Part shown: positions 5,959-27,134 of the stretch, piece after piece
How positions within the stretch are numbered: position 1 is the first letter of the stretch
Layout: each line of letters begins with the position of its first letter
From: Myxococcota bacterium
GTDB lineage: Bacteria > Myxococcota_A > UBA9160 > UBA6930
DNA length: 64,000 nt
Reading direction: 5' to 3'
Assembly: GCA_965223705.1 (NCBI GenBank)
Contig: OZ245015.1
Span: forward strand, 576,001-640,000
Program-made: the position numbers and the translations under genes
Notes under the pieces: generated by a model
Databases searched by the model: none
What the model saw: only the letters and a program-made list of their open reading frames with translations
Told to the model about the DNA's origin: nothing

Positions 5959-5988
5959 CCGCCCGGCCATCAAAAAAAACTGCGCAAG

Positions 5989-6016
5989 GTGATCCGGTTC
6001 GGGTGCCGCGGCGACT
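5989..6016 (+). promoter_or_regulatory. ECF-type promoter GTGATCC-N16-CGACT (divergent partner)
   Basis: GTGATCC ggttcgggtgccgcgg CGACT, A-tract upstream. Confidence 0.75.
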
Positions 6017-6695: not shown

Positions 6696-6765
6696 AGCTT
6701 AGAGCTCGCCGGGGCGGGGGTGAACCCGCCCCGGTTTCTCTTTTCGGGAAGTCTTGCACGGGGAT

Positions 6766-6897
6766 CGAGGTTTGGCCGTGGCCAGTGGGGGCACCGTGCT
6801 CAAACATCCTCGCGCCGATGCGGCAACGAGGTCGCCTCGCGTGCCTCGGCGGCGCTGCGGAACTGCGCGCGGTACCCCCACTGGCCACGGCCTCGCG
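6766..6897. repeat. ~130-bp structured dispersed repeat, copy 1 (REP/MITE-like or structured RNA)
   Basis: Long terminal stem GGCCGTGGCCAGTGGGGGCACCG / CGGTACCCCCACTGGCCACGGCC; second copy at 22970-23100. Confidence 0.8.
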
Positions 6898-6942
6898 ACG
6901 CCTAGCTAGACCGCCTCCCTTGACCCCGTCTGCAGAAGATTT

Positions 6943-9480
6943 CTAGCCGGCGGGTATCACCGCTGGGACGAAGAAGAAGTCGCCGGACTCGTGGCCCGCG
7001 AATCGGATGGGGGAATACTGGGGTAGCTGCTCGATGGGCGCTTCGTAGGTCACGCGCGCCGAGACTTCCTGGAAGACGCGCTGCGCTTCGAGGATCACGT
7101 CGTTGCTCTCGAGAACTTCGATCAACGCGCGAGCGAAGATCGAGTGCGCGCCGCCCCCGGCATCGAGAACCGGAGCGAGTCCGCCCGAAGTCAGCGCCGT
7201 TCGGGAGCGCTTCGCGGCCATGGTCTCGATCCACTTCACGCGCGCCTGCTCGCTCATCCCCGCTTCCAATCGGGCGAGCGATGAGCGCGTGAGCGCACCG
7301 GAGTAGCACGAGTCTGCGATCACGAGTACGTGGCGCGCGCTCATCGAATTCAACATGTCCGTCAGGGCCACGTTCGAGATCCAGTTCGCCGTGCTGTCGG
7401 CTTCGGCATCGATCGGGAGCCAATGGCCGCGCATGTTCGTCTTGTCGAGCTCGCCGTGACCCGCGTAGTAGATGAGAAGGTTGTCGTCCTCTGTCAGCTC
7501 GCGACGCAGATTGTTGAGTGCGGAAAGCGTCTGGTAGCGATCCGCGTCGTAGATCGTGGTGACCTTGAAGCCGTACTTGTCGCGCAGCAGACCCGAGACC
7601 ACCTTGGCGTCGTTGCGCGCGGTGTCGAGGGTCGGCAGCGACCGATACGCATTGTTCCCGATGACGAGCGCGTGGTAGTTGCCGAAGTTGATCGGCGGAA
7701 GCTTCGGTCGATCGGGTGCGGCGGCTACCGCCGGCGGTTCAATGGTGCGGACGCCGCTGGCCTGCACCAGGAAGTTCCGCGAGGCGCGTTTGCCGAGTTC
7801 ATCGATCGCGACGATGCGGACATCCGTGCCGTTCTCTCCCACCGGGAGCTCGCGTTCGAAGATGCCGTGCGCCGTCACTTCGATCGCCTTGTCATTGAGT
7901 GTCACGGAATACAAACCCGCGGGCGCTTCCACGCGTCCCACGACCCGTTGCACGTCGGAGGTCGCCATAAATACGGGTCGGATGCCACGCGTCATGCGAA
8001 GGGGGGGCTCGATGATCTGGATCGACGGCCCGGCGATCTCTTCGCCTTCGCCGCTCGCCGGTTTCGCCAGTTGTGCGACTTCGACCTTGCGGGCTTCCGC
8101 CTGATCCCGGAGTCGCTTGATCTCTTGGTCGAGGGCCGCGAGTTCTGCGCTCTTCGCTTCGAGCGCCGCCTCGCGCTCGGCGACGCGTTGTTCACGGGCT
8201 GTCACGGCTTCCCCGCGATCGCCCATCGCCTCCTCTGCGGCCTCGAACTCCGCTTCGAGCCGGGCGAGGTTCGCTTCGCGCTCCGCGAGCTCCCGCCGTT
8301 GCGCCTCGCGGGCCCGGTCGAGCTCAGCGCGCTGCGCGCCGAGCTCAGCGCGCTCCGACTCGAGTGTCGCGGCGGAAGCTGCCAGCGCTTCGCGTTCCGA
8401 ACCGAGCTTGTGTCGCTCCGCGGCGAGCGCTTCGCTCGCGGCGGCATTGGCCTCGCCTGTGCGCTCGCTTTCGCCGAGAGCGCGCTCTCGACGATCGAGC
8501 TCCTCGGCGCGAGCCGCAAGCCGAGCGCGCTCCTGCGACACGGCGTCGTCCCGCGCGCCGAGCTCCGCTTCGCGTCGGTCGAGTTCGCTCTGCCGCACGG
8601 ACGTGTCGTCGTTGGCTTCCCGTTCGAAAGCTTGAACCGCGGCGCGCTCCTCGGTCAGGCGGCGCTCTCGCTCTGCGATATCGCGTTGCTGCTCGGCGAG
8701 CTCGCGCTTGCGCGCTTCGAGCTCTGCGCGCTCCACGGCGAGTGCGTCTCGTTCGCGTGCCGCTGCGGCCTCATCATTCGAGAGCCGAGCGCGCGATTGC
8801 GACAGCTCCCCCTCGAGACGACTGATCTCCGAGCGCATTTCCGTGCGATCGCGCTCGCTCTCGGCGAGTTCTGCGCGAAGACTCGCGAGCTGCGTCGTCT
8901 CCCCCGGCGCCGAAACGAACGCGACGTCGGTGCCTTCGAGACCCGAGGCTCGGCGGTACCACGACACTGCGGTCTCCATGTCGGCGGGTACGCCGAGTCC
9001 GCGTTCGTAGAGCTGGCCGAGATTGACCTGCGCCGCGGCGTGGCCCTGCTCAGCAGATTTCCGGTACCAGGTCGCGGCGGCTTTGTAATCGGGTGCCGTG
9101 CCGAGCCCGCGCTCGTAGATCTCGCCGACGTAGTTCTGGGCGACGGGGTCGCCGCTCTCCGCGGACTGCTGCCAAACGCGCAGTGCCGTGCGGTAGTCCG
9201 CCCGGTCGTAACTCACGTATTCGCCGCCGCGGATCTCGCAGTCGAGGCCCGTGGTCTTCACGGGCTTTCGGGGGGCTAGGTAGGTGACCTTGCGCCCCAT
9301 CTTGCGGACCCGCGCGGGCAGGAGACAATCGACGACGAGGAGGTCGTCGGGGTCCTGCACGGCGGCCACGGGGTTCGGCGCGGCATGGGCCTGGGGTAAA
9401 CCTGCGATGAGAACAAGCAGCAGCAACGCGAGCGCGCGGCGCAGGACGGTGGCGTCCCGGCCTAGGGGTGCGGCAAGCAT
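6943..9480 (-). CDS. Exported peptidase C14 (caspase-like) with Sel1 repeats, long coiled coil and Ig-like domain
   Basis: Signal peptide (..PQAHA), Sel1 repeats (AQNYVGEIYERGLG, AQVNLGQLYERGLG), E/R/A-rich coiled coil, ALVIGNNAY, YYAGHG and ADSCYSG dyad; GGAGG RBS before ATG 9480. Confidence 0.88.
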   Translation of the reverse strand: MLAAPLGRDATVLRRALALLLLVLIAGLPQAHAAPNPVAAVQDPDDLLVVDCLLPARVRKMGRKVTYLAPRKPVKTTGLDCEIRGGEYVSYDRADYRTALRVWQQSAESGDPVAQNYVGEIYERGLGTAPDYKAAATWYRKSAEQGHAAAQVNLGQLYERGLGVPADMETAVSWYRRASGLEGTDVAFVSAPGETTQLASLRAELAESERDRTEMRSEISRLEGELSQSRARLSNDEAAAARERDALAVERAELEARKRELAEQQRDIAERERRLTEERAAVQAFEREANDDTSVRQSELDRREAELGARDDAVSQERARLAARAEELDRRERALGESERTGEANAAASEALAAERHKLGSEREALAASAATLESERAELGAQRAELDRAREAQRRELAEREANLARLEAEFEAAEEAMGDRGEAVTAREQRVAEREAALEAKSAELAALDQEIKRLRDQAEARKVEVAQLAKPASGEGEEIAGPSIQIIEPPLRMTRGIRPVFMATSDVQRVVGRVEAPAGLYSVTLNDKAIEVTAHGIFERELPVGENGTDVRIVAIDELGKRASRNFLVQASGVRTIEPPAVAAAPDRPKLPPINFGNYHALVIGNNAYRSLPTLDTARNDAKVVSGLLRDKYGFKVTTIYDADRYQTLSALNNLRRELTEDDNLLIYYAGHGELDKTNMRGHWLPIDAEADSTANWISNVALTDMLNSMSARHVLVIADSCYSGALTRSSLARLEAGMSEQARVKWIETMAAKRSRTALTSGGLAPVLDAGGGAHSIFARALIEVLESNDVILEAQRVFQEVSARVTYEAPIEQLPQYSPIRFAGHESGDFFFVPAVIPAG

Positions 9481-10303
9481 GGGGAGATCCTCCGCTCGAA
9501 AGGCAAGACTCGGGCTCTCAGCGCTGCTCGGTCTCGCAATTTGGGCCCTGGGTTGTGCCGCGCCGGCGAAGCGTTTCGACGCGACGGCCCGGGACCTCGG
9601 TTTCACACGAGAAGTCGTCCGAGGCACCCGTTTCGATCACATAGTTTACCACCGGCGCCGAAAACCCTCGGAGGGGACGCTCCACATCTACCTCGCGGGC
9701 GACGCCGATCCGAGGCGCGCGACGCGTTGGTTCCCACCGGATCCGACCCCAGGGGGGCTCCCCCTTTTCCTGATGGCCTCGGATCCCGGACCGAGTCTTC
9801 TCCTCGGACGCCCGTGCGCCCACGACGCGACGCGCTGCGACGAGGTCGCGCCCTGGACGAGCGCCCGCTACGGCGAGGCCGTCGTCGAGAGTCTCGGCGC
9901 GGCGATCGATAGCTTGGAGCCCGCGACGGGTGACCGCGGTGTCGTGTTGATCGGTTACAGCGGCGGCGGGACGCTCGCGATGCTCGTGGCGGAGCGGCTC
10001 GCCCAGGTGCGTCGCGTGGTGACGCTGGCGGGCAACCTCGACACGGCGGCCTGGGTCGGCCACCACGGCTTCCCCGGGCTGCCGGATTCACTCAACCCCG
10101 CCGAGCGGCCCCCGCTCTCGGTCCCTCAACTGCACCTCGTCGGCGAAAACGACAAGGTCGTCCCGCCCCATTTGGGGCGAACTCTTTGGGAACGTCAGCC
10201 GAACGCGGAAGTGCGCCGGCTTCCCGGCGTCGATCACACCTGCTGCTGGGAGCGCGTTTGGCCCGCCGTCGCTCGCGAGCTCCGCGAAACACCGGCCCGC
10301 TAG
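9479..10303 (+). CDS. Alpha/beta hydrolase lipoprotein
   Basis: Lipobox ALGC, GYSGGG nucleophile motif, GENDKVVP, DHTCCW. Confidence 0.8.
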   Translation: MGRSSARKARLGLSALLGLAIWALGCAAPAKRFDATARDLGFTREVVRGTRFDHIVYHRRRKPSEGTLHIYLAGDADPRRATRWFPPDPTPGGLPLFLMASDPGPSLLLGRPCAHDATRCDEVAPWTSARYGEAVVESLGAAIDSLEPATGDRGVVLIGYSGGGTLAMLVAERLAQVRRVVTLAGNLDTAAWVGHHGFPGLPDSLNPAERPPLSVPQLHLVGENDKVVPPHLGRTLWERQPNAEVRRLPGVDHTCCWERVWPAVARELRETPAR

Positions 10304-11709
10304 AACTGGTACCGCAGCCCGCCGCTCAGGGTGTAGAGGTCGACGGAGCGGAGTCCCAGCACGGTCTCGAAATCGATGAAAAAGGACAGTCCGCCCGAGA
10401 GCGCTGCGGCGATTCCCGCCGCCACGTTCGCGTAGGTCCGATCCGGCCCGTGGGCGCGGAACGTGAACCCGTTCTGGTTCGGGTCCGCGACGAAGGTCGC
10501 CCTCAAATCACGGCCGTCGTCTCCGTATTCCTGCTCCCACTCGGCCCGGATGTACGGCGTGAGCACGCCGAAGCTCGTCGACAGCGCATACCGAATCGAG
10601 AGACCCACGTCGCTCGTGAGCGAGCGCACCGTTTGATCGTCGAAGTCGAGGCGCAACGCACTGGCGATGCCGGAACCGCTTTCCGTGTAGCCGTCGATGT
10701 CGAGGTGGGTGTAGTTCACGCGAACGTAGGGTTCGATTTCCCAAGCGCCGCGGTTGATCGCGTAACCCGCGCCGACGCTGACCGCGATTTCGTCTCCGTC
10801 CGTATCGCCGGACAAGGTCCCGGTTACCGGCGCTGCGGAAGCCAGCGCGTACGCGATATCGCGGTCGAGGTCGTAATCGATGTCGGCGTAGCTGATCACG
10901 CCGTCGACGTACCAGCGCTCCATCTGATAGCTGGCGTAAGCGGAGAGGTGCAGCGCCTCCTTGTCGAGGTCACCGGCGCTGTCGTCAAAGTCGAACGTCG
11001 ATTCCGAATAACCGATCGAGATACCGGCCGCCGTCGCGTCGGAAAAGCGGTAGTCGACGCCGCCCACGATGCCGTAGGCGTCTTCGATATCGAAGCCCGC
11101 CTCTTCTTCGGTTTGATCGTAGTCGCCCCACGACCCGAGTCCTGTCACCCAGACGCCGATCCGATCGCCCAACAGGCCGCTTACCGGGTCGTCGCCGGCG
11201 GCAAACCGCTCGGCGAAAGCGACTTCGAGATCCTCGCCGCGCAGCGAGTCCCCGTCCGCGTCGCGCAACGTCAGGCCCGCGAGTTGGATGCCGCGGTGTC
11301 CGTCGCGCAACGCGATCAGTCGGCCCTTCATGAGGTCGATGTTCGTCGCGGTGGTTTCCGTCGAGGCGGCGCGCGTCGCCGACAACTCGTCGAAAGCGAC
11401 ATTCGAGTAGCCGATGTTGCGTTCGGCATCGCTCAGGCCGGTGGGATCATTTCCCAGGGTGCCGTCGCCGTCGAAATCGTTGACGACCATTTCGGTGCAC
11501 AGACCGGAGAGTCGCTCCGTTTCATTCGCCGAATTTCGATTCGGCGTCGCTCCGAGAAAAGGGCACACGGAGAAAATGAACTCCTCCCCCTTCTGGGGGA
11601 CGATGGACTGGAGCGAATCGTCGATCGGTGACTGCGCCAGCGCTTGACCGCTGCCGAAGAGCACCATCGAGAGTGCGAACGCAATGAGTAGCTTGGCCTT
11701 GACGTACAT
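10300..11709 (-). CDS. Autotransporter-type outer-membrane beta-barrel with very short passenger
   Basis: Signal peptide, GVWVTGLGSWGD, GGVDYRF, amphipathic beta-strands, C-terminal RYQF. Confidence 0.85.
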   Translation of the reverse strand: MYVKAKLLIAFALSMVLFGSGQALAQSPIDDSLQSIVPQKGEEFIFSVCPFLGATPNRNSANETERLSGLCTEMVVNDFDGDGTLGNDPTGLSDAERNIGYSNVAFDELSATRAASTETTATNIDLMKGRLIALRDGHRGIQLAGLTLRDADGDSLRGEDLEVAFAERFAAGDDPVSGLLGDRIGVWVTGLGSWGDYDQTEEEAGFDIEDAYGIVGGVDYRFSDATAAGISIGYSESTFDFDDSAGDLDKEALHLSAYASYQMERWYVDGVISYADIDYDLDRDIAYALASAAPVTGTLSGDTDGDEIAVSVGAGYAINRGAWEIEPYVRVNYTHLDIDGYTESGSGIASALRLDFDDQTVRSLTSDVGLSIRYALSTSFGVLTPYIRAEWEQEYGDDGRDLRATFVADPNQNGFTFRAHGPDRTYANVAAGIAAALSGGLSFFIDFETVLGLRSVDLYTLSGGLRYQF

Positions 11710-11757
11710 CTCCGGTGATTCCTTCCCTGAATCGAGCCGCAACGGCGGCCCAGTGTA

Positions 11758-13779
11758 CTAAGAACGGGGCATGCTGCGAAGCGGCACGCGATCGATCGCC
11801 CAGCCGGCGGGCCGAGGCGCTGCGGGCCCCGAGCCGATGTGCTCGAGAAGCGATTCGACCCAGCTCGTACTGCGTGTTCGGCGGGCTTCTCCCACGAGCA
11901 CGGTCGGGTCGTCGATCGGGTCCTCGGTCGACAGCAGCACGAGTGTGTCGGTTCCAAAGGGCGGAGCGACTTCGATCCCGGTGCGTCCCAAAGGAACAAG
12001 AGGCGGGGGAACTTCGTCCGCCGATACGGGAACCCGGTTTCCCACATTGCCGGATTCTGCGCGGGGAAAGAGCAGGGCGCGCTCGCCGTACCCGTCGACC
12101 ACGAAAACGTAGACGTAGCGCTGTTCGACGCTGGACGTTTCGACATCGTTTCGGCGCTGCAGCATCAACTCGAAACGGTCGCCTTCGAAGACCACGCCAC
12201 CCGGAATGACGCGGCCCGCCGAGGTGTCCCGCAAGACCAGGCGGTAGGGGAAGGCCGAAGCGTTTTCGGGGGATTCGAGCAGCAGCCAGTTTCGCGCGAC
12301 AGCCAAGCGTCGGGCGTTCTCCGCGAGGAGCGCCGCTGCATTCGGCGCGGTCTCGGGAATTCCGGCCCCACGGGGCGGGAGCCCCGACGCTTCGCCCGTC
12401 CGCCGCTGCCAGTGAAGCTCCGGCGCCGGCCCGGAGTGGTCTGCGGCGAGGACGTAGTGGGCCTGCGCTTCGGAAACGAGCTCGACCCCGGGAACCGATG
12501 GGATCGAGTGGGCGAGCTCTTGGCGAAGCGTCGGCGGAACCAGTGCGGGCAGCGCGACCTGGAGGGCGCCGCCGGTCGGGTGCGCCCAGCGGACCACGCG
12601 AAACAGCGTGCCGGTTCGGACCGCCTCGGGATCTCCGGCAAGAACCCGTGCCGTCGAGCGATTCAAGCCGCTCACCTGTTCGACCTGTATGCGGACGCTG
12701 GTTTCTTCGGAGACGAGCTCGCTACCGCGAAAAATGCCGGCCGCGGTGCCCGCTCGGAGAACCACCGAGTCGCCGTCCGCCGGTCCCAACGCTGCGAAGT
12801 GCCGTCCCGGGCGTGCGGTTGCGGGCGCGGCCCCGAAAAGCGCGCGTTCCCGTCGCTCGAGGGAGCCCGCCAGCACGGGTGTTTGCACGTTGTGCCCGCT
12901 GCCGAGCAGGGCGCGCGTTCGGGCGAAGAGCTTCGACACAGGCTCGTCAGCCGGGGCCTGCCCCAGGGCCTCGAACAGGGCAACGCTGAAGGCCCCGTGG
13001 TATTCGCCGCTCGCGTCGCGGGATTCTCGGGCGAGCTCACCGTCGGAGGTCGCCGCCAAGACGAGCGCACCGCGCTCCTCCGGTGCTCCTCGGGGGTCGA
13101 AGGGCGGCGTCGCGGCTCCCGCCTCGGCTTCGTAGCGGGGGGGAAGCGTCCGCACGTCTTCTACCGCGTGGAAGCTTCGAGTGGCCGAGCCGCTGTGACA
13201 GCTGTCGAGAATCACGACGAGCTCGGCGCCGCGATCGAGGACGTCGTTGAACAAGCTGCGGAGCTCTTTGTCCCGGATGTCCGCGGCGCCGCGATTCGCG
13301 TCGGCCGGCACGATCGTTTCGTCGAGGAGGTCCGCTTCGGTAGACGCCGCGTTCCGCAACTGTGAGCCGTGCCCCGCGAAGTAGAACAAGTTGACGTCGC
13401 CCGGGCCCGAAGCCTCGATCAGATGCTCGCGTATGGCGTTGAGGATGCCGTCGCGGGTGGCTTCGCCGTCGGTCAGTACACGAACGGACTCGCTCGGAAA
13501 CCCAAACCGTCCTTGTAGGATCGCCCGGAGCGCTTCGGCATCGTTCACCGCGCCGCGGAGATCGACCCAACTCGCGGAGGCTTTCGCCCGCCCGCGCGTC
13601 ACAGCGACCGCGCCGGCTTCCGGTCTGTAGCGGTCGATGCCCACCAAGAGCGCGCGTTGTGCGCCGGCGGCAGCGTCGGCGAAGCAACAGATGGCGAGGG
13701 CGGCGAGGAGCCAAAGGGTCGGCCGACGCCGCGCCTTGTGCACAACGTCGGCCGACCGATGGTGGGAGTTTCGGATCAC
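11758..13779 (-). CDS. Exported peptidase C14 (caspase-like) with C-terminal DUF4384-like domain
   Basis: Signal-like N-terminus, RALLVGIDRY, LRGAVNDA, FAGHGS and LDSCHSG dyad; C-terminal GDRFEL...YVYVFVVD..LLFP; exact start uncertain. Confidence 0.85.
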   Translation of the reverse strand: MIRNSHHRSADVVHKARRRPTLWLLAALAICCFADAAAGAQRALLVGIDRYRPEAGAVAVTRGRAKASASWVDLRGAVNDAEALRAILQGRFGFPSESVRVLTDGEATRDGILNAIREHLIEASGPGDVNLFYFAGHGSQLRNAASTEADLLDETIVPADANRGAADIRDKELRSLFNDVLDRGAELVVILDSCHSGSATRSFHAVEDVRTLPPRYEAEAGAATPPFDPRGAPEERGALVLAATSDGELARESRDASGEYHGAFSVALFEALGQAPADEPVSKLFARTRALLGSGHNVQTPVLAGSLERRERALFGAAPATARPGRHFAALGPADGDSVVLRAGTAAGIFRGSELVSEETSVRIQVEQVSGLNRSTARVLAGDPEAVRTGTLFRVVRWAHPTGGALQVALPALVPPTLRQELAHSIPSVPGVELVSEAQAHYVLAADHSGPAPELHWQRRTGEASGLPPRGAGIPETAPNAAALLAENARRLAVARNWLLLESPENASAFPYRLVLRDTSAGRVIPGGVVFEGDRFELMLQRRNDVETSSVEQRYVYVFVVDGYGERALLFPRAESGNVGNRVPVSADEVPPPLVPLGRTGIEVAPPFGTDTLVLLSTEDPIDDPTVLVGEARRTRSTSWVESLLEHIGSGPAAPRPAGWAIDRVPLRSMPRS

Positions 13780-14318
13780 TAGTTCGCCTTGCGGAACTGT
13801 ACGCGTCGGTTCTTCGATGCCGTGGGCTTCACCTCGGGCAGCGGCGTGTCTTCGCCGCGACCCACGGTGACGAGCCGAGCCGGGTCGATCTGGTGCGACT
13901 TCACCAGGTAGTTCCGGACGGACGCCGCGCGAAGCTCGGAAAGTCGCTGGTTGTAGGTCCGCTCGCCGATCGCATCGGTGTGGCCCTCGATCACGAGTTT
14001 CTCGTTCTTCGCCTGCTCGGTGCGCAGGGCCTGGCCGAGCTGATCGAGGAAGGGCTGGGATTCCGCGAGGATCTCCGCCGAATCAAAACCGAAGCGCACC
14101 TGGAACCCGATGGTCTGGGGCGGCGTGGGCGCAGGCGCGTCCTTCATCACGATCGACCGCGTCTTGTAGGCCGGCGCTGCGGCGGGGAACAGGCGGTCCG
14201 CCAGTTCCTGGGCCGACGGGGTCGAGCCCTCGATCATGTGTACCTCTTCGGCGGAGGCGGTATTCGCCGCGAGGATCAGCGCGGCACCTGTCAGCAAGAC
14301 TCGAAGCAATCCAAACAT
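13779..14318 (-). CDS. OmpA-family peptidoglycan-binding protein
   Basis: FGFDSA, IEGHTDAIG, YNQRLSELRAASV, NRRVQF; signal peptide. Confidence 0.92.
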   Translation of the reverse strand: MFGLLRVLLTGAALILAANTASAEEVHMIEGSTPSAQELADRLFPAAAPAYKTRSIVMKDAPAPTPPQTIGFQVRFGFDSAEILAESQPFLDQLGQALRTEQAKNEKLVIEGHTDAIGERTYNQRLSELRAASVRNYLVKSHQIDPARLVTVGRGEDTPLPEVKPTASKNRRVQFRKAN

Positions 14319-14348
14319 GTTCAATTCTCCTTGGGCCAGGGGCCTTGG

Positions 14349-15875
14349 TTATTGCGAGACGTCGATCCCGAGGCGGCCCACCGTGAGCCCCTTCGGATCG
14401 ATCGCTTCAAAATGTCCCAACAATTCGTTCAAGTTCGCGACGGGAAGCGGCTGTAGGTCGCCGCCCTTGAGCTCGGACGGGAGATGCAGTCCGAGCTCGC
14501 GGTCGGAAGCGACGCACGCGATCTCTTCCCGCGTGTTCGGTCGTTCGAACAAGATGGTGAACGGAGCATCGCGAGACGGAACCTCGACGAAGCGCTTGCC
14601 GCCCACGTAGGAGTTCGGCTGGAAGCGGTTCGGAAAGATCCGCGCCACGTGACCGCCCGCATCGGCGTAGTAGCAGTAGACGTACGCGCTGTCCGAAGTC
14701 TCCACGGTCATGCGGAACTCTTCGCCGACTTTGTAGGTCGGGTTCGCGCCCCGCTCGTTCAGCATCTTGAGCGTCAACGGTTCGCGCGCCGCAAGCTTCT
14801 CAGGAGTCGGCACCGAGCCAGTGTCTTCGAGGCTCGGCGGACCGGCGGCGACCTGGTAGTCCGCGCCGAGAAGCGTCCGATAGAGGTCGAAACCCACGCG
14901 ACCCGTCGGCACGAGGTTATTCTCGGTTTCGAACCGTGCGATGGCTTTGCGGGTGGCGCCGTCGAGCGTTCCGGCGCTTTCTCCCTCGAGATAGCCGCCG
15001 GCGACGAGTGCGCGCTGCACGAAGAGCAAGCGCTGCTTGTCCGACATGCTGGCGTACCAGTCGCGAATCTCCGCCAACACCTCGGGGTGCGTGGACTCGA
15101 TCTGCAAGCACTCCCAGTACGGCACGCGGGCGAGCTTGCCGAGGAGCTCGATCGCGCCGAGCTCGACCAACGTACGAACGGCTTGGTGCATGCCTTCGCT
15201 GCGGTCGATATCGATGCTGAAGGAAATGCCGACTTTTTCGATCAACCCGGCGAGATCCGCGCCCTTGCCCTTGCGGCGCACGGCCAAGCGGTTGCTCGCG
15301 GTGAGCCCGGGAACGACGCGCTTCGAGGGGTACTGAACGATGTTCATGTCGAGTGCCAACACCGAGGCGGTATTCGTTGCCGCCGCGGACGCGTCACCCG
15401 AGAGATCGTCGTTGTCGTAGGAAAGGCCGCCGCCGATCGAGTTGTCTTCGACGTTTCGATCGAGCTGCGTGATCGCGCCGCGAATATAGAAGTGCGGCAG
15501 GTTCTGATTGACCGGAAGCTCGGCCTGTTTCCCGATCGTGTCGAGATAGATGATCTGCTCCTGGTACTGCAGATCCAGATAGGAGAAGGCCTGGCTTCGC
15601 ATGGTCATCCGGGAAACGGCCGACATCAGCATGTCGTCGGTACCGGCGGCGACCTTGCCCGTCGCGTCCGGGATGCCGATCGACGTGATGCGGAAACCGC
15701 GCACGCCGTTTGCCACGAACATCTGGTCCATGCACGTCAGCGACTCGCTGAAGCTCGTCATCGACCGGACCGCCTGGGTCTTCGGTACGGACGTGATGTA
15801 GGGATCTTCGGGGATGGTCTTACAGGCGACCAGCCCGAGACAAAGCGAAAGAACGAGTAGAGCTTTAGCAGCCAT
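14349..15875 (-). CDS. Lipoprotein: CsgG/HfaB-like domain + peptidoglycan-binding domain + DUF4384-like domain
   Basis: Lipobox LVAC; IPDATGK, FYIRGAITQLD, VLALDMNIV, AVRTLVELGAIELLGK resemble CsgG/HfaB fold; FVQRAL..GYL..G.LD..TRKAI..F is PG_binding_1-like; YKVGEEF..YVYCYY..IFPN is DUF4384-like. Confidence 0.72.
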   Translation of the reverse strand: MAAKALLVLSLCLGLVACKTIPEDPYITSVPKTQAVRSMTSFSESLTCMDQMFVANGVRGFRITSIGIPDATGKVAAGTDDMLMSAVSRMTMRSQAFSYLDLQYQEQIIYLDTIGKQAELPVNQNLPHFYIRGAITQLDRNVEDNSIGGGLSYDNDDLSGDASAAATNTASVLALDMNIVQYPSKRVVPGLTASNRLAVRRKGKGADLAGLIEKVGISFSIDIDRSEGMHQAVRTLVELGAIELLGKLARVPYWECLQIESTHPEVLAEIRDWYASMSDKQRLLFVQRALVAGGYLEGESAGTLDGATRKAIARFETENNLVPTGRVGFDLYRTLLGADYQVAAGPPSLEDTGSVPTPEKLAAREPLTLKMLNERGANPTYKVGEEFRMTVETSDSAYVYCYYADAGGHVARIFPNRFQPNSYVGGKRFVEVPSRDAPFTILFERPNTREEIACVASDRELGLHLPSELKGGDLQPLPVANLNELLGHFEAIDPKGLTVGRLGIDVSQ

Positions 15876-16200
15876 CGCGGTTGAATCCTCGGTTGATGTT
15901 GATGACGTCGCCGTCGATGACAACTTCGATCTCGTCGGGCACGTCGTTCTTGCCAGGACCGGTGAAGACGCTGCCGATCGACAGGCTACCGGTGCAGTTC
16001 ACAATATCGCCTCGGTGATAGAATTTTCCGGGCTCCTGCTCCTCGGGAACGATCGTTTCGCCCGCGACGCTGGCTTTGTGCATCTTGCGGAGATGCGAAG
16101 CCTTCACGCGGGGCTTGTTGAAATCGTTCGCCAACGCGGTGTGCGCCGGCACGAAGGAGAGGCCGAGTGCGAGTAGCAACAGGGTGTTCGTGATCTTCAT
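15865..16200 (-). CDS. Small secreted protein with Cys pair (candidate accessory subunit)
   Basis: Signal peptide ending TALA, NCTGSLSIGSV...IEVVIDGDVININ..C; overlaps start of CsgG-like gene; own ECF promoter. Confidence 0.75.
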   Translation of the reverse strand: MKITNTLLLLALGLSFVPAHTALANDFNKPRVKASHLRKMHKASVAGETIVPEEQEPGKFYHRGDIVNCTGSLSIGSVFTGPGKNDVPDEIEVVIDGDVININRGFNRDGC

Positions 16201-16242
16201 GGTGTAGCTCCCTCGGTCCTTATTGTGGACCAACTGGTTGAG

Positions 16243-16270
16243 AGTCGCGCCTTCTCTTGTCCTGGATCAC
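16243..16270 (-). promoter_or_regulatory. ECF-type promoter for the CsgG-like/OmpA/caspase operon
   Basis: GTGATCC aggacaagagaaggcg CGACT. Confidence 0.75.
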
Positions 16271-16518
16271 CGAGAAGTCGGGAAATCGCTCGTATCCTCG
16301 GGAACCTGCTGGACTTCGGTGTCCGCGCGATCGCCCAAGGGGCAGAGCTCGGTCGGCGAGTCGATCGGCAAGCTCGGTACGGCTTCGAAAGACACGGTTT
16401 CGCAGTACGTGATCTCGATGGGATCGTCGACGTCCGCATCGCTGAGCGCAAACGCCGGTACGGTCGTCGTGAAGTCGAGGAAGAAGAGGGCGGTCAGCAG
16501 AAGTCGTTGTCGTTTCAT
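16267..16518 (-). CDS. Small acidic secreted hypothetical protein (83 aa)
   Basis: Signal-like N-terminus ending AFA, D/E/P-rich, two Cys; own ECF promoter. Confidence 0.55.
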   Translation of the reverse strand: MKRQRLLLTALFFLDFTTTVPAFALSDADVDDPIEITYCETVSFEAVPSLPIDSPTELCPLGDRADTEVQQVPEDTSDFPTSR

Positions 16519-16547
16519 CGGATGCCTCGGGTGCGTTGTTGATGAGG

Positions 16548-16575
16548 AGTCGACGGCGGGGGCTTCTCGGATCAC
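16548..16575 (-). promoter_or_regulatory. ECF-type promoter
   Basis: GTGATCC gagaagcccccgccgt CGACT. Confidence 0.75.
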
Positions 16576-16583
16576 CGAACGCG

Positions 16584-16630
16584 AAGAAAAACGGGGTGCG
16601 GCGCCGACTCTGCGGGGGAGTCGACGCCGC
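16584..16630 (-). terminator. Intrinsic terminator after paralog A
   Basis: GCGGCGTCGACTC/GAGTCGGCGCCGC stem followed shortly by T-tract on minus strand. Confidence 0.65.
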
Positions 16631-16669
16631 GGGGGAAGCCACGGCGTGGCTTCCAGGGCTCGTGTTTAT

Positions 16670-16996
16670 TTACTGCTGGGGTTCGCAGTCGGTCGCGGCA
16701 CCGAGCGATCCGAAGGTCGCGCACGCGTTCGACTCGTAGGATTTCGCCATGGTGTCGACGTACTTGGCGGTGCCCTCGAGGACCGGATCCCAACCGATGC
16801 GCGTGTAGTCGTGCATGGTCGCGACGCTCGTGTACGCGCTCGACTTCGTGCCCGACGCGACGGTATCGACGTTTTCACCCACCGCGAGGGTGATGAGGAG
16901 GTCGTGGACCTCGGTGGTGAAATCGCCAGCGACGCTGGCCTGGGCGAGGGAGAGAGTCGCGATCGCCGCAATCGCGACGGAGAACAAGCGGTTCAT
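16670..16996 (-). CDS. Secreted two-repeat beta-rich protein, paralog A (108 aa)
   Basis: AAGGAG RBS, signal peptide, DFTTEV...SVATMHD...ACATFGSLG...C; homologous to four neighbours. Confidence 0.85.
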   Translation of the reverse strand: MNRLFSVAIAAIATLSLAQASVAGDFTTEVHDLLITLAVGENVDTVASGTKSSAYTSVATMHDYTRIGWDPVLEGTAKYVDTMAKSYESNACATFGSLGAATDCEPQQ

Positions 16997-17046
16997 GGTG
17001 GTGCTCCTTGTGGTGTGGGTCCCGCTATTTCCGGGACTTGAAGAGG

Positions 17047-17074
17047 AGTCGCGCCAGGGCGTGTCACGGATCAC
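17047..17074 (-). promoter_or_regulatory. ECF-type promoter (paralog A)
   Basis: GTGATCC gtgacacgccctggcg CGACT. Confidence 0.78.
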
Positions 17075-17082
17075 CGATCCCG

Positions 17083-17116
17083 AAAAGAAAAAGCGCCGGC
17101 TCTTTCGAGCCGGCGC
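17083..17116 (-). terminator. Intrinsic terminator after paralog B
   Basis: GCGCCGGCTC-GAAA-GAGCCGGCGC + TTTTTCTTTT. Confidence 0.8.
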
Positions 17117-17141
17117 CAGAGGGGCAGGGGGACGTGTTGCC

Positions 17142-17465
17142 TTAGCGGGGTTCGCAGAAAGTCGGGTTGCCGACGGAACCGAAGGACGCGCAGGCGTGCG
17201 CGTTGTAGCCGCTGGCCTTGGTCTCGATGTAGCGCGCGTCGCCCTTGAGGTTCGTCTTGTAGTTGATGAGCGTGTCGTCGTGCACTGTCGCGACACTCGT
17301 CGTGGCGCTCGAGTAGTCACCCGTGGCGAGCGTGTCGACCTGGTAGCCGTAGGCGTCGGTGTCGAGCTGCGCGCGGATCTCGGTGGTGAAGGGGTTCGCG
17401 AAGCTCACGCTCGCGATGGTCAGGGCGGCAAAGCCGGCGATGGCGGAAACGAAGAGGCGGTTCAT
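17142..17465 (-). CDS. Secreted two-repeat beta-rich protein, paralog B (107 aa)
   Basis: Signal peptide, NPFTTEI...SVATVHD...ACASFGSVG..C. Confidence 0.88.
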   Translation of the reverse strand: MNRLFVSAIAGFAALTIASVSFANPFTTEIRAQLDTDAYGYQVDTLATGDYSSATTSVATVHDDTLINYKTNLKGDARYIETKASGYNAHACASFGSVGNPTFCEPR

Positions 17466-17519
17466 GATGTTCTAGCTCCTTGGTGGTGTTTGTGGGTCGC
17501 TTCCTGCGACTTGCCTAGG

Positions 17520-17547
17520 AGTCGGGCCAGGAGGGGTCTCAGATCAC
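17520..17547 (-). promoter_or_regulatory. ECF-type promoter (paralog B)
   Basis: GTGATCT gagacccctcctggcc CGACT (one mismatch). Confidence 0.72.
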
Positions 17548-17554
17548 CTGCGGC

Positions 17555-17589
17555 AAAAAAAAAGCGCCGGCTCACGAATGAGCCGGCGC
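17555..17589 (-). terminator. Intrinsic terminator after paralog C
   Basis: GCGCCGGCTC stem + T9. Confidence 0.8.
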
Positions 17590-17614
17590 CGTCGTGTCGT
17601 GTCGGCTGCGAAGG

Positions 17615-17965
17615 TTACTCCTGGACGAGCATCTTGCTGCGCTGGCCGGGCTCGCAGTGGGTCGGGTTGCCGACGGAACCGAAGGACGCGCAGGCGTGCG
17701 AGTCGTAGCCGCTGGCCCGGGTCTCGATCCAGCGAGCGTCGCCCTTGAGGTTCGTCTTGTAGTTGATGAGCGTGAAATCGTGCACGGTCGCGACGCTCGT
17801 CGTGGCGCTCGAGTGGCGGCCCGAAGCGACGGTATCGACCTGGTAGCCGTAGGCGTCGGTGTCGAGTTGGCCGCGGACCTCGGTGGTGAAGGGGTTCGCG
17901 AAGCTCACGCTCGCGATGGACAGGGCGGCAAAGCCGGCGATGGCGGAAACGAAGAGGCGGTTCAT
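17615..17965 (-). CDS. Secreted two-repeat beta-rich protein, paralog C (116 aa)
   Basis: Nearly identical to paralog B, with short C-terminal extension. Confidence 0.88.
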   Translation of the reverse strand: MNRLFVSAIAGFAALSIASVSFANPFTTEVRGQLDTDAYGYQVDTVASGRHSSATTSVATVHDFTLINYKTNLKGDARWIETRASGYDSHACASFGSVGNPTHCEPGQRSKMLVQE

Positions 17966-18020
17966 GATGTTCTAGCTCCTTGGTGGTTTTTCGCGGGTCG
18001 CTCCTTACGACCCGTGAAGA

Positions 18021-18048
18021 GGTCGTTCGAGGAGCCGCCCTGGATCAT
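18021..18048 (-). promoter_or_regulatory. ECF-type promoter (paralog C)
   Basis: ATGATCC agggcggctcctcgaa CGACC (two mismatches). Confidence 0.65.
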
Positions 18049-18055
18049 CGACAGC

Positions 18056-18090
18056 AAAAAAAAGCGCCGGCTCGAGGTGAGCCGGCGCTT
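18056..18090 (-). terminator. Intrinsic terminator after paralog D
   Basis: AAGCGCCGGCTC/GAGCCGGCGCTT stem + T-tract. Confidence 0.8.
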
Positions 18091-18113
18091 CGGAGGCGGG
18101 GAAAACCGTCGGG

Positions 18114-18440
18114 TTAGTGCTTCGGGCGGCAGTACGTCGGGGCACCGACCGAGCCGAAGGTCGCGCAGGCGTGGGCGTTGTTGCCGCTGGCCTCGGTGCG
18201 GATGTATTCCGCCTTGCCCTTCAGGTTCGTCTTGTACTGGATGAGCGTGTAGTCGTGCACGGTCGCGACGCTCGTCATCGCGCTCGAGTTGTCGCCCGTG
18301 GCGAGGGTGTCGACGTTCTTGCCGTAAGCATCGGTGTCGAGCTGAGCCCGGACCTCGGTGGTGAAGTCATTGGCGAAGCTCACGTTGGCGATGGACAGGG
18401 CGGCGAAGCCGGCGATTGCGATAGCGAAGAAGCGGTTCAT
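18114..18440 (-). CDS. Secreted two-repeat beta-rich protein, paralog D (108 aa)
   Basis: Signal peptide, NDFTTEV...SVATVHD...ACATFGSVG..C. Confidence 0.88.
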   Translation of the reverse strand: MNRFFAIAIAGFAALSIANVSFANDFTTEVRAQLDTDAYGKNVDTLATGDNSSAMTSVATVHDYTLIQYKTNLKGKAEYIRTEASGNNAHACATFGSVGAPTYCRPKH

Positions 18441-18505
18441 TGGATGGTTCCTTTGGTGGGATCGTTTTCAAACTCTCTGTCGCGCCCCTGCGCGACTTGC
18501 TGAGG

Positions 18506-18533
18506 AGTCGTTCGCCGGCCGCTTCCGGATCAC
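18506..18533 (-). promoter_or_regulatory. ECF-type promoter (paralog D)
   Basis: GTGATCC ggaagcggccggcgaa CGACT. Confidence 0.78.
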
Positions 18534-18573
18534 CCGAGCTCATTTTTTTCAGCGCGATCGCGATTTTTTCCAG

Positions 18574-18614
18574 AAAAGAAAAAGGCGCCGGCTCGAGGGG
18601 AGGAGCCGGCGCCT
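18574..18614 (-). terminator. Intrinsic terminator after paralog E
   Basis: AGGCGCCGGCTC/GAGCCGGCGCCT stem + TTTTCTTTT. Confidence 0.8.
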
Positions 18615-18639
18615 CGGGAGAGGAGGAGAGCTTTCGGGG

Positions 18640-18975
18640 TTAGTTCTTCTCCTCGCAGTGGGTCGCGGGGCCGATCGACGCGACGCTCGTGCAGGCGCGC
18701 GATCCACTGTGGCTGGCCTCGGTCCAGACGTCGCGTACGGAGACGTCGATCTTGACCGGACCCTCGATCTTCGTGTCGTCGTGGATCGACGCGACGCTCG
18801 AGTAGGCGACGGCGTTGGCGGCCGTGGCCTTCGTCGTAACGTCCCGGACTTCCACGGTAATTTCGACCCGATCCTTGATCACGGTCGAGAAGTCACCGGC
18901 GAAGCTCGCGGTGGCGAACGACATCGACACGATGCTTAGGGTGATAGCGGCGATGAGGGCGAAGGCGCGGAGCAT
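18640..18975 (-). CDS. Secreted two-repeat beta-rich protein, divergent paralog E (111 aa)
   Basis: AGGAG RBS, signal peptide, clear 37-aa internal repeat (VRDV.T.A....A.SSVASI / VRDV.T.A....ACTSVASI), Cys pair. Confidence 0.85.
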   Translation of the reverse strand: MLRAFALIAAITLSIVSMSFATASFAGDFSTVIKDRVEITVEVRDVTTKATAANAVAYSSVASIHDDTKIEGPVKIDVSVRDVWTEASHSGSRACTSVASIGPATHCEEKN

Positions 18976-19031
18976 GGCTTTTCTCCTGGCTTGTTGATGT
19001 CGCTGGCCGCGCATCTCGCGGCTCGTTCCGA

Positions 19032-19059
19032 AGTCGCGGGCACTTCCCGTTTGGATCAC
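19032..19059 (-). promoter_or_regulatory. ECF-type promoter (paralog E)
   Basis: GTGATCC aaacgggaagtgcccg CGACT. Confidence 0.78.
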
Positions 19060-19144
19060 CGCGAAGGAAAAAACGATTTATCCCCACGGGGCAGTGCGGT
19101 ACAGTACGATCGAGTCCTCGGTTAGAGAGGGTCGGCGACAAGCG

Positions 19145-20017
19145 ATGGATCGAGAACAGTGGAAGACAGTTCTCAACGCGGCGAGCGACGGCGACGCGCC
19201 CGCCTTGCTTCAGCTGACCCGCCAGGTCAGCCGGCTCCTCGAGGAGTACGGCGCCTACACCGTCCGTAAGGAGTGGGCCGAGGACGTCCAGAAGATCACG
19301 GCAGCGGTTCTCGAGGGATGGGCCGAGGGTGGAACCCTCGCCGCGGACACCCATATCGAAAGCGTCACCAAGAACCGTTTTTGGGGTCAGATTCTCGATC
19401 TGATGACCCAGAACGATATGAAGGCGGGCCAGCTCTTCTTTCCGACCGTTCGCCGTCTACTCGGCAAGTGGGACGGGGCCCGGCGCGCCGAGGCGCAATG
19501 GGACGACATCGTTCAGGAGACCGCGCACCAGCTCTGGGAGAGCTGGATGAAGGGTGGGGTGAAACGCCCCTGGTCGCTGCTGTGCACCATCGCGAAACGC
19601 CGTTATCTCGACAAAATCCGCGCCGAGCGCCACACGGAAGAAATCGAGGATGAAGCTTCTGAGGAGCTGGGTGACAGCCCCGGCGAGCTCTTCACCGAAC
19701 AAGCCCTGGCCGTCCTCGAAGAAGAGGAGCGGCAGGTCATTGTCCAAATGGACATCGAGGGCAGGACGCGCGTCGAAATCGCGGATTCTCTCGGCGTGAC
19801 CGAAGGCCAGGTGCTTTCGACGCGCCGGGCGGGGTTGCGCCGCATCTGGAGATGGCTCGGCCGCGACCTTCCACCGACCTCGCGCGCCGTCTGGGAGGAG
19901 ATGTTCAAAGGCGCGCGGCGAATTCCCCCGGAGGAAGTGGCCGCCAAGCTCAGTATGGAGACCGCCGAGGTCGTCGAGATCCTCGAAGAGGCGCGCGTCC
20001 TCACGGGGCTCGCATGA
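19145..20017 (+). CDS. ECF-type sigma-70 factor with N- and C-terminal extensions
   Basis: Region 2 (WDDIVQET...LCTIAKRRYLDKIR), region 4 (LEEEERQVI..EGRTRVEIADSLGVTEGQV); adjacent anti-sigma. Confidence 0.82.
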   Translation: MDREQWKTVLNAASDGDAPALLQLTRQVSRLLEEYGAYTVRKEWAEDVQKITAAVLEGWAEGGTLAADTHIESVTKNRFWGQILDLMTQNDMKAGQLFFPTVRRLLGKWDGARRAEAQWDDIVQETAHQLWESWMKGGVKRPWSLLCTIAKRRYLDKIRAERHTEEIEDEASEELGDSPGELFTEQALAVLEEEERQVIVQMDIEGRTRVEIADSLGVTEGQVLSTRRAGLRRIWRWLGRDLPPTSRAVWEEMFKGARRIPPEEVAAKLSMETAEVVEILEEARVLTGLA

Positions 20018-20037
20018 GGGAAAAAACTCGCTGTGAA

Positions 20038-20065
20038 GTGATCCGGAACGTCCACTGGCGCGACT
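20038..20065 (+). promoter_or_regulatory. ECF-type promoter for anti-sigma gene
   Basis: GTGATCC ggaacgtccactggcg CGACT, A-tract upstream. Confidence 0.75.
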
Positions 20066-20129
20066 TGGGTCCAGGGGAAGGTGGGTCATCGAACCCGCCG
20101 ACAGGAGCCTCGACGAAAAGGATCGTCCC

Positions 20130-20912
20130 ATGACCAGCAAGGCCCACGAGCCTGACTTCGAAGACCGACTCGAGCGGTCCACCGGTGCCCGCCTGCGCGG
20201 CGAAGACCCGCGCGAGCTGACCTGGCACCCCTCGGACAGCGAGTTGCTCGCGTTCCACGCAGAGCCTCGCGGGATGGAGGCCTCATTGCGGTCCCGCATC
20301 CGCGATCACTTCGGGAGCTGCGGATCGTGCCGCGATGCGTTCGCGGCGTTCTCGGTACTGGCCGCCGCGCCTGCGCCCGAGGTGGCGCGCGCAGCGGCCG
20401 CCGATTCTCCTTCTCTGCTCGAGCGCTTGTTCGAGCCGTTCCGCGCGATGTTCGCGCAGCCCGCCTTGGTCTCGGCCATGGTCGCGGTCTTCGCCGTCGC
20501 GGGTTTTCTCGCGATCGACCCGATCGATCCGGGCCCCGGTGAGGGCACCCGGGGCGTGTATCCCATCGAACGCACGCCCTCGGTCGATCCCGGCACGCTC
20601 GGTTCGGCGACCGTCACCCTGGCGAGCGGCTTTCCGACGCGAGTCGAAGCCGATGCGTTGTCGGGTTCTCGGGAAGTCGTCCTCGAGCTCCTCGCGCCTT
20701 CGACGCTTCCGGCGGGGCCCGAGTTCACGGTCCGCTTGATGGGGCCCGAGGGGGCCCGCGAAGCGGTCGCCCAGCTCGGCGAAGAAGCTCCGCCGCGGAT
20801 CGCCGCGATTTTTCCGGCCGAGGCTCTGACGCCCGGCGCGTATCGGGTGACGGTCTTTCTACCCTCCGACGCGACGTCCGCGCTCGCGACCTACGAACTC
20901 GAGATCGAGTGA
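20130..20912 (+). CDS. Zinc-binding (zf-HC2/ZAS) transmembrane anti-sigma factor
   Basis: HPSDSELLAF, HFGSCGSC (HxxxCxxC), one TM, periplasmic Ig-like tail (LTPGAYRVTV...YELEIE). Confidence 0.82.
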   Translation: MTSKAHEPDFEDRLERSTGARLRGEDPRELTWHPSDSELLAFHAEPRGMEASLRSRIRDHFGSCGSCRDAFAAFSVLAAAPAPEVARAAAADSPSLLERLFEPFRAMFAQPALVSAMVAVFAVAGFLAIDPIDPGPGEGTRGVYPIERTPSVDPGTLGSATVTLASGFPTRVEADALSGSREVVLELLAPSTLPAGPEFTVRLMGPEGAREAVAQLGEEAPPRIAAIFPAEALTPGAYRVTVFLPSDATSALATYELEIE

Positions 20913-21130
20913 TGCACCGTCTTCTCGTCGCCGCGGCGTTTCTCGCGCTGGCGTGCGTCGACGGCGGACGAAGCCCCGAAGCGAGTCTCGACGGTGCGCT
21001 GCACGTGACGTGTCGCGGGGCTGGCACAGCCGTGACGGTGATTGGATCGCGCGCCGCAGACGCAGGGCGCGTCGTCGCCCGGGACGTTCGGACCGACGCC
21101 GGACGCGGCAGCCGCTGCGAAGAGTCCTAG
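20909..21130 (+). CDS. Possible small lipoprotein
   Basis: Lipobox-like LALAC, start coupled to anti-sigma stop. Confidence 0.4.
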   Translation: MMHRLLVAAAFLALACVDGGRSPEASLDGALHVTCRGAGTAVTVIGSRAADAGRVVARDVRTDAGRGSRCEES

Positions 21131-26951: not shown

Positions 26952-27134
26952 CCACAGCGTTCTGCCAGGCCTCGAAACCGTCACCAGACGCGCAGGCCGC
27001 GGTTGTTTTTCTCCGACAATCCCCCTCAACTAGTCACGAAACCTCCCGCCTGGTGTGACCCCTTCGGCGTTTGGCGTTCCTAGGCTCCTATGGGATTTGG
27101 GAGCCGTGTGGGAGCGGCTTTGGGGGAACGGCTT

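Follow-up and report, generated by a model that had tools for sequence, protein, structure and literature searches.

Five tandem genes on the reverse strand of a Myxococcota genome (assembly GCA_965223705.1) probably encode the subunits of an undescribed secreted surface fiber of the curli/Fap type, built as a beta-solenoid, whose amyloid nature is a prediction. The genes, here called A to E, lie in a stretch of 64,000 nucleotides of contig OZ245015.1 (positions 576,001 to 640,000), hereafter the window, whose own numbering is used throughout. On sequence grounds, the five paralogs appear to belong to an unnamed subunit family that is associated with a CsgG-type export module and that is neither curli nor Fap by motif. 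The fiber reading gains support from a CsgG/HfaB-like lipoprotein, the candidate pore, and a small conserved protein, here called the helper, because their genes adjoin the array and travel with the family.

Five probably secreted two-repeat paralogs and their predicted stacking

Genes A (16670..16996, 108 aa), B (17142..17465, 107 aa), C (17615..17965, 116 aa, with a tail nine residues longer), D (18114..18440, 108 aa), and E (18640..18975, 111 aa) are all read from the minus strand, A being closest of the five to the helper and pore genes. They lie and translate as described in the initial annotation of the window, and the repeat units quoted there for B and E are correct to the letter. Each protein has a signal-peptide-like start, two 37-residue units, and a Cys pair, and with cleavage set by eye at an A-x-A site the mature forms comprise 84 to 93 residues. 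Pairwise identity over the repeat region ranges from 30 to 85%, with 73 to 85% among B, C, and D, 50 to 55% between A and these three, and 30 to 32% between E and the other four. A tblastn search of the genome detected no sixth copy. An assembly artifact is an unlikely source of the array, because contigs of the public run X1, possibly the source sample, cover it evenly, with 0 to 1 differences per long piece. Joints in another run, X7, suggest that related strains differ in copy number, or may reflect cross-mapping between paralogs.

The significance of the internal repeats was assessed with 1,000 shuffles per protein, A to E each being scored separately. In E, 17 of 37 positions are identical between the two units, a value reached by none of the shuffles and thus clearly beyond chance. 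Self-similarity of A to D is marginal (7 to 9 of 37 identical), with shuffles as good numbering 11 per 1,000 for C, 15 for D, 26 for A, and 53 for B, and the best lag in D was 46 rather than 37. The proposed architecture of two 37-residue units is clear in E and secure in the spacing across the family and in the model of B, and it is marginal for A to D taken singly.

A profile of the five proteins retrieved 73 cluster representatives at an E of ≤0.001 among 1.84 billion, one of which (P0089) was dropped as a chance match. Records with family members are Myxococcota-labeled, alphaproteobacterial, and gammaproteobacterial. Across 78 members, the repeat spacing was 37 in 58 of 83 cases, with a range of 35 to 38 (the profile includes A to E). 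Relatives carry two to six repeats of 35 to 38 residues and a signal-peptide-like start, which suggests that the rungs are modular. The columns of the family profile show the alternation of hydrophobic and small residues noticed initially in the window. In P0023 and P0025, database relatives of B and C, repeat 2 is out of frame, through a frameshift or an assembly error.

Two further features of the initial description hold within the array and loosen beyond it. The A-C dipeptide and the last Cys are invariant across A to E, 11 residues separating the two cysteines; in the family, 66 of 78 members have two Cys and 12 have none, and all three subunit copies of the relative G014 lack Cys. The first Cys lies four or six residues past a conserved Gly, depending on the subgroup, and both positions would face outward on the last strand, which would fit a tail that is stapled laterally onto the rung and does not cap it. 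Likewise, Asn plus Gln make up 2 to 9% of A to E, in agreement with the reported absence of Asn/Gln ladders, and at most 33% of every family column, yet the family includes Asn-rich relatives.

No Pfam or NCBIfam entry matched A to E and 66 relatives above cut-off (subthreshold rows only), nor 7 to 8 further relatives. PHROGs gave no match for the seven proteins searched, and neither did PDB sequences searched with two profiles for the subunits. No relative turned up when metagenome contigs were scanned with the five-row alignment, no plasmid matched one relative used as the query, and ESM Atlas gave unnamed clusters only (0.76 to 0.91). One match of the family profile among genomes of the same phylum, in G063, was a bactofilin and was dropped.

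E had been proposed as a divergent nucleator, a role that we reject on identity and core comparison. E is up to 45% identical to outside members, above its identity to A to D, and its V/I core is the most family-typical of the five; this suggests that A to D are the derived expansion and that E is not specially divergent. Several relatives (G014, L024, and L070) have only near-identical subunit copies. For both reasons, the helper appears, by analogy, to be a better candidate for a nucleator or anchor than E. A may be a minor subunit, as was also proposed.

Among 11 B/C/D-like sequences, which are kin and not independent, inward and Gly positions average 1.3 residue types and other positions 2.6. 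Since inward residues are kept and outward residues varied in the alignment, the paralogs would be expected to copolymerize into one core with a mixed surface. Ratios of nonsynonymous to synonymous polymorphism (pN/pS) in the mature parts were 0.41 to 0.58 among B, C, and D and 0.82 to 1.06 against A; they are uncorrected and GC-biased and hence are not used as evidence.

The AlphaFold monomer of mature B is all-beta, with two rungs whose four strands recur at exactly +37 (predicted local distance difference test, pLDDT, 86; predicted template modeling score, pTM, 0.70). A natural four-repeat relative, L094, was modeled as a regular solenoid with a period of 36 (pLDDT 96, pTM 0.88). A model of four copies of B scored 0.57 against 0.01 for the best control, with a contact agreement between runs of at least 95% and a partner pLDDT of at least 77; 20 of 30 solved pairs attained the mark used for this complex score, as did 1 of 23 single chains, and these counts apply only roughly to four copies and an author-built alignment. 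In the closest contacts, residue i+37 of a chain meets residue i of the following chain (72-35, 70-33, 59-22, and 65-28), so that repeat 2 of one B chain is predicted to stack in register and continuously onto repeat 1 of the next. As predictions, the three models support the stackable beta-solenoid rungs suggested initially, and neither a globular nonstacking fold nor a match to a characterized family appeared.

Fold searches put the predicted shape among beta-solenoids, with no close match. Foldseek returned nothing at an E of ≤0.001 for either model and VIA nothing at a Z of ≥8, which proves the fold neither new nor different. For the four-repeat relative, Foldseek ranked FapC (9u4u), whose core is a three-layer Greek key, first (E 2.9e-3) and CsgA third, without superposition (template modeling [TM] score 0.12 to 0.13; for 9u4u, TM 0.12 and root-mean-square deviation [rmsd] 14.9), and FapC was absent from the 50 rows shown of a second look with VIA. 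The best VIA match was EtpA (Z 6.5, rmsd 2.5, 95 aligned); CsgA (8enq) reached Z 4.4 to 5.7 with an rmsd of 8.3 to 8.8 over 87 to 90 residues, and bactofilin (6ria) Z 3.7 with an rmsd of 3.2 over 72 residues. For the two-rung model, HELLF was the only chain with a Z of ≥2 (Z 2.0, rmsd 5.0, 49 aligned). Because the low-rmsd matches are, as we take it, right-handed beta-helices, the model is probably right-handed as well.

Association with a CsgG/HfaB-like lipoprotein and a helper

The candidate secretion pore (14349..15875, minus strand, 508 aa) is a lipoprotein with an invariant Cys18, a CsgG/HfaB-like N-terminal domain, and PG_binding_1 and DUF4384 domains. Its likeness to CsgG appears weak but consistent. 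It matched NCBIfam HfaB (NF037935) at an E of 3e-11 (42.9 bits; cut-off, 300) and Pfam CsgG (PF03783) with 11.4 to 13.4 bits (cut-off, 20.8). Pfam CsgG was matched by 20 of 27 members of the pore family at an E of ≤0.05, the best at 3.3e-5, and CsgG was the only PDB match of the pore domain profile (E 0.18 to 0.2). The profile alignment spans CsgG residues 137 to 196, where we place the first of the membrane hairpins, and a further Gly-rich stretch with the alternating pattern is kept as well. In the genome itself, no true CsgG or curlin match was detected.

The helper (P0007 family, about 100 aa, here 111 aa; 15865..16200, minus strand) overlaps the start of the pore gene. Its conserved layout comprises a signal peptide, an N-terminal Asn motif, a likely helix, and a Cys-flanked tail with a weak likeness to one permuted rung, in which the final strand of a rung comes before the opening strands of its successor. 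P0006 and P0007 had no Pfam or NCBIfam match, three helper relatives had none in NCBIfam, and the helper profile recovered no CsgF from the PDB. In curli operons, csgF directly precedes csgG, and from its corresponding position the helper may have a CsgF-like role as an adaptor or nucleator. According to section 6 of PMC12822426, the N-terminus of CsgF binds CsgG and its C-terminus anchors the nucleator.

On the subunit side, co-occurrence was surveyed in 400 evenly drawn genomes of one other large phylum, with the center excluded and blind to context. The repeat family was present in nine genomes (about 2%), all of which have the pore gene, which occurs in 19 of the 400 overall. It lies within about 1.2 kb of the subunit gene in eight of the nine, the ninth lying at a contig end, and the helper is present in all eight of those loci that hold the pore. 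In the phylum of the window, true members were found in 3 of 301 genomes (G000, G014, and G055), each with the pore, and a fourth genome has the pore only by these searches. Six of the 11 pore-only genomes were inspected: G089, G654, and G634 have a diverged repeat gene and the helper directly upstream (by eye or with a weak profile), G499 has an 802-aa repeat-like neighbor (E 5e-8), and in G481 and G639 neither a repeat gene nor the helper was seen. The proteins in G654 and G634 (L149:6937-7647 and L150:10348-10902) are subunit-like, three-repeat, Asn/Gln-richer, and CxxC-ended, with the helper and pore gene following, and they are the nearest approach to the FapC layout seen here.

On the pore side, 80 loci of the closest pore relatives (the best 80 of 221) were compared. 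The pore tree was a quick version with long branches at the row of our lipoprotein, and only its two 100%-supported clades with DUF4399-like neighbors (40 and 17 loci) were used, leaving 23 others, of which two come from one assembly and one (L042) duplicates G055. Among these 23, a subunit gene is in the locus in 15 and elsewhere in the genome in 7 of the remaining 8 genomes, and the helper is in 20 loci (its profile was partly seeded from them). The three surveys and the pore-only genomes suggest that the subunits seem to need the pore gene and that the converse does not hold, the pore family also occurring without subunits.

Two observations concern pore relatives of the DUF4399-linked kind. 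In 9 of the 17 loci of one such clade (L064:3947-4615, L093, L089, L099, L098, L050, L079, L092, and L084), a different secreted protein has about five 35-aa Gly/Asn/Gln-rich repeats and matches the 37-aa profile weakly; it is possibly a sister fiber subunit, and the one protein tested, that of L064, matched no Pfam or NCBIfam family. In L027, L037, and 36 other loci of an Azospirillum-rich clade, and in L021, the gene of a CsgG-like/peptidoglycan-binding/DUF4384 protein follows a pair of DUF4399 genes, accompanied by genes for OmpA, adenylate cyclase, and SUMF1-type proteins. No repeat subunit was found in the 11 genomes searched from the Azospirillum-rich clade, which points to a second use of the pore family.

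Comparison with known systems and competing explanations

The module resembles curli (type VIII secretion) in its repeat subunits, likely exported by Sec, whose predicted stacking is a head-to-tail beta-solenoid like that described for CsgA in PMC10192328, and in having a CsgG-like lipoprotein and a small gene directly before the pore gene. It differs in its repeat length, 37 residues as opposed to about 20 in curli (PMC12822426, section 6). The paired N-x-h-x-h-x-Q motifs by which section 7 of the same paper defines the curlin repeat are absent from all five proteins of the window, and one such motif occurs in 4 of 73 relatives. Curlin_rpt matched neither the proteins nor the genome, whereas the E. 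coli control was matched; no CsgE or CsgF family match was obtained, the pore is fused to peptidoglycan-binding and DUF4384 domains, and CsgA superposes poorly on the model, as given above.

With the Fap system of Pseudomonas (FapB, FapC, and FapE, exported via FapF, with the protease FapD), the module shares layers made of a single repeat, a C-terminal Cys pair, a gene cluster that includes a cysteine protease, and a repeat length near the 38 to 39 residues given for Fap in section 2.1 of PMC12392863. The pair is a CXXC in FapC (10.1101/2020.03.09.983882), as opposed to a spacing of 11 residues here; two repeats without a linker contrast with three with linkers in Fap, and the Asn/Gln motif GN-h-G-h-N ... 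gNqQN of the same section 2.1 was found in none of 78 members. A caspase (C14) takes the place of FapD, and a CsgG-type lipoprotein that of the trimeric barrel FapF; neither the FapF barrel nor the FapD protease was found in the cluster, where the neighbors are CsgG-like, OmpA, Peptidase_C14, and an autotransporter barrel.

HfaB of the Caulobacter holdfast anchor, the best named match of the pore protein, is a CsgG-like lipoprotein thought to export small, amyloid-like, noncurlin proteins (PMC6707917). The pore protein stays far below the HfaB cut-off and has extra wall-binding and DUF4384 domains, the subunits have no HfaA or HfaD match in NCBIfam, and no holdfast export genes were seen in the cluster. 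HELLF resembles the subunits in its two-rung solenoid per chain and bactofilin in its end-to-end beta-helix polymer, but the rungs of HET-s/HELLF and bactofilin are shorter, and neither gave a family match for A to E. HET-s/HELLF and bactofilins are cytoplasmic, whereas A to E, which do not match the bactofilin family PF04519, have signal-peptide-like starts.

By sequence, the module thus appears most like curli in export and most like Fap in repeat length and the terminal Cys pair, while lacking both defining motifs and falling short of the HfaB cut-off. Functional amyloids have their own export and nucleation genes next to the subunit gene, a linkage represented here by the pore (9 of 9 genomes) and the helper (8 of 8 loci), going by their presumed functions. 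The class is also recognized by cross-beta fibers, dye binding, and resistance to SDS and formic acid; the stacking of the present subunits is a prediction. Our literature search, in a library with few subscription papers, found only papers on curli, Fap, Hfa, and MCE and reviews, and no description of such a system, although an earlier one may exist; nothing pairing CsgG with DUF4384 was found, nor anything joining a CsgG homolog, metacaspase, amyloid, and operon, and the DUF4384 papers, going by title and the start of the abstract, are not on such a system.

We propose the following order of events. A divergent extracytoplasmic function (ECF) sigma factor would likely switch on each gene from its own copy of a promoter-like motif, with a terminator-like hairpin behind each subunit gene. 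After Sec export, the Cys pair would likely pin the tail against the last strand on its outward side, so that neither stacking end is blocked. The chains would then pass through an oligomeric CsgG-type pore, to which the lipoprotein has weak homology, tied to the wall by its peptidoglycan-binding domain and the OmpA-like protein. The helper would sit in the pore like CsgF and offer a single template rung. Repeat 2 of one chain is predicted to stack in register on repeat 1 of the next. By analogy with FapD in Fap, the caspases may process or clear subunits.

Several points weigh against this interpretation. Expression, secretion, and fiber formation are presumed here from genes and models. Open-ended beta-solenoid models may stack from geometry alone, the complex score carries no information on affinity, and A to E lack the Asn/Gln ladders that stabilize FapC and CsgA. 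The pore domain lies under the curated cut-offs of both CsgG and HfaB, and CsgG-related lipoproteins without a pore, or rings without membrane-spanning segments, exist according to PMC13631591. The pore family does not always serve these subunits: 57 of the 80 loci, those of the two DUF4399 clades, have neither the helper nor a family member at an E of <1e-6, and none of 24 genomes sampled from these clades holds a subunit gene. Near-identical subunits mark six of the nine co-occurring genomes as probable kin, which leaves about four independent cases. In hhalign, the helper was a weak match to the repeat (probability 10%, E 0.003), another comparison gave no such likeness, and four of the nine motif copies in the window came with the tandem duplication.

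The alternative that survives best, which we consider fairly unlikely, places the stacking inside the envelope, where a solenoid rod or scaffold, in the periplasm or tethered to the wall and similar to a bactofilin polymer or a holdfast anchor, would be organized by a nonpore ring of the CsgG fold such as those just mentioned. The pore-like protein and its OmpA-like neighbor both bind peptidoglycan by their domain matches, ECF sigma/anti-sigma pairs suit an envelope-stress response, and a true bactofilin was picked up by the family profile (E 1.5e-4), besides the superposition of 6ria. Yet the pore profile covers the presumed first membrane hairpin of CsgG and keeps the second Gly-rich stretch, the helper directly precedes the pore gene as csgF does csgG, and five separately promoted copies suggest bulk production.

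It is unlikely that A to E are secreted to act in soluble form, as monomers or short oligomers with diversified surfaces that serve as small adhesins, binding proteins, or decoys, their stacking being a modeling artifact. Such a role would fit the strongly degenerate repeats of A to D and the missing Asn/Gln ladders, and the best low-rmsd matches, such as EtpA, are nonpolymerizing beta-helices; these matches, none of which reaches a Z of 8, show a common arrangement only. Moreover, nothing in the sequence or the model caps the two-rung solenoid, inward positions are conserved in both repeats, and the four-copy model stacks in register with a score well beyond that of the controls. A signaling amyloid, in which solenoids like those of HET-s/HELLF, likewise with two rungs per chain, would activate the two neighboring exported caspases by templated assembly, is very improbable. 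It would fit the HELLF match and the caspase matches in 13 of 23 long loci of the subunit type. However, the HELLF match (Z 2.0) is at the noise floor, caspases match even more often (43 of 44) beside pore relatives without subunits, the subunits stand alone with signal peptides and no effector or receptor domain, and the partners that recur throughout are the pore and the helper rather than caspases.

The recent surveys of bacterial amyloid operons described in section 7 of PMC12822426 use curli and Fap profiles only, and the repeat family matches neither motif, yet turned up in 9 of the 400 evenly drawn genomes of one large phylum, about 2%. Should fibers form, a CsgG-type pore would carry an unrelated, Asn/Gln-poor cargo, the need for Asn/Gln ladders in a stable functional amyloid would become testable, and materials work would gain an 85-residue, two-rung building block. 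A broader reading, which we find tempting but would not yet bet on, is that of a third widespread functional-amyloid system beside curli and Fap, with minimal two-rung, Asn/Gln-poor subunits, a Fap-length repeat, a disulfide-stapled tail, a wall-tethered CsgG-type pore, and nucleation by a one-rung adaptor. Its five separately promoted paralogs would build a fiber whose core is constant and whose mosaic surface can be tuned, and the family would grade into Asn-rich, CxxC-ended members possibly linking curli-type export with Fap-type subunits. The system is testable now, because the cultured strain Azospirillum lipoferum 4B carries a compact version on plasmid p4, consisting of a subunit, a helper-like gene, the pore, and OmpA.

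Promoter-like motif and neighboring genes

The motif GTGATC[CT]-N16/17-GACT[CT] occurs on the minus strand before E (19031..19059), D (18505-18533), B (17519-17547), A (17046-17074), an 83-aa open reading frame (ORF) (16547-16575), and the helper (16242-16270), and on the plus strand before the anti-sigma gene (20038-20066); a two-mismatch version before C (18020-18048, minus) was read from the sequence. Genome-wide, 9 of 16 matches fall within window positions 5958-20066, about 0.015 being expected per 15 kb, and the motif recurs at the module in G014 and G055. Terminator-like hairpins follow E (18582..18615), D (18061-18091), C (17563-17590), and B (17092-17117) on the minus strand, and one after A (about 16600-16633, minus) was seen by eye. 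With its own motif and its own terminator, each subunit gene is likely a separate transcription unit under the local sigma factor.

That factor, a divergent ECF-type sigma (19145..20017, plus strand), likely drives the motif; it is 52 to 56% identical to the sigma factors beside the module in G014 and G055. It is lineage-specific, being present in 3 of the 23 long loci of the subunit type, two of which are the same locus. The following gene (20130..20912, plus) encodes a likely membrane-spanning anti-sigma factor, to judge from an H..CxxC motif and one hydrophobic segment. After it, a small lipoprotein-like ORF (20909-21130) has a counterpart in G014 (L010:13241-13555) with a short stretch like one repeat strand and its own promoter motif.

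Further motif copies stand back to back at 5958 (minus) and 5989 (plus), 13 kb from the sigma gene. One is oriented toward a Cys-rich 65-aa ORF and a glycosyltransferase-like/UDP-GlcNAc epimerase-like region, and the other points to a small ORF rich in Gly and Tyr. In G055, the motif likewise stands before a short Cys-rich ORF of similar kind (L011:11841-12104). Elsewhere in the genome, strict copies at C1 936561 (plus) and 986151 (minus) precede an anti-sigma-antagonist-like ORF (labeled by eye) and an 84-aa secreted-looking ORF, possible members of the regulon.

Downstream of A, the order is orphan ORF, helper, lipoprotein, OmpA-like protein, caspase, autotransporter barrel, hydrolase, and Sel1-caspase protein, with the sigma/anti-sigma pair upstream and divergent. 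G014 keeps this whole layout with its three subunit copies, and G055 keeps it with two subunit genes. The acidic 83-aa orphan (16267..16518, minus) is a likely gene, with a signal-peptide-like start, two Cys, and its own motif; four of its six listed internal variants fall at third codon positions, and no relative was found in related loci. An OmpA-like peptidoglycan-binding protein with a signal peptide (13779..14324, minus) is followed by a caspase-family (C14) protease (11758..13779, minus) with a signal-peptide-like start, His and Cys motifs, and a weak DUF4384 match. The autotransporter-type beta-barrel (10300..11709, minus) has a short N-terminal part only and almost no passenger; it is kept beside the module in G014 and G055 only and represents a second outer-membrane channel. 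A protein with Sel1, a coiled coil, and a second caspase domain (6943..9627, minus; start uncertain) is also kept in G014 and G055. At 27090-27902, the window encodes a secreted protein that, from its C-terminal motif, we take to be of the PEP-CTERM type.

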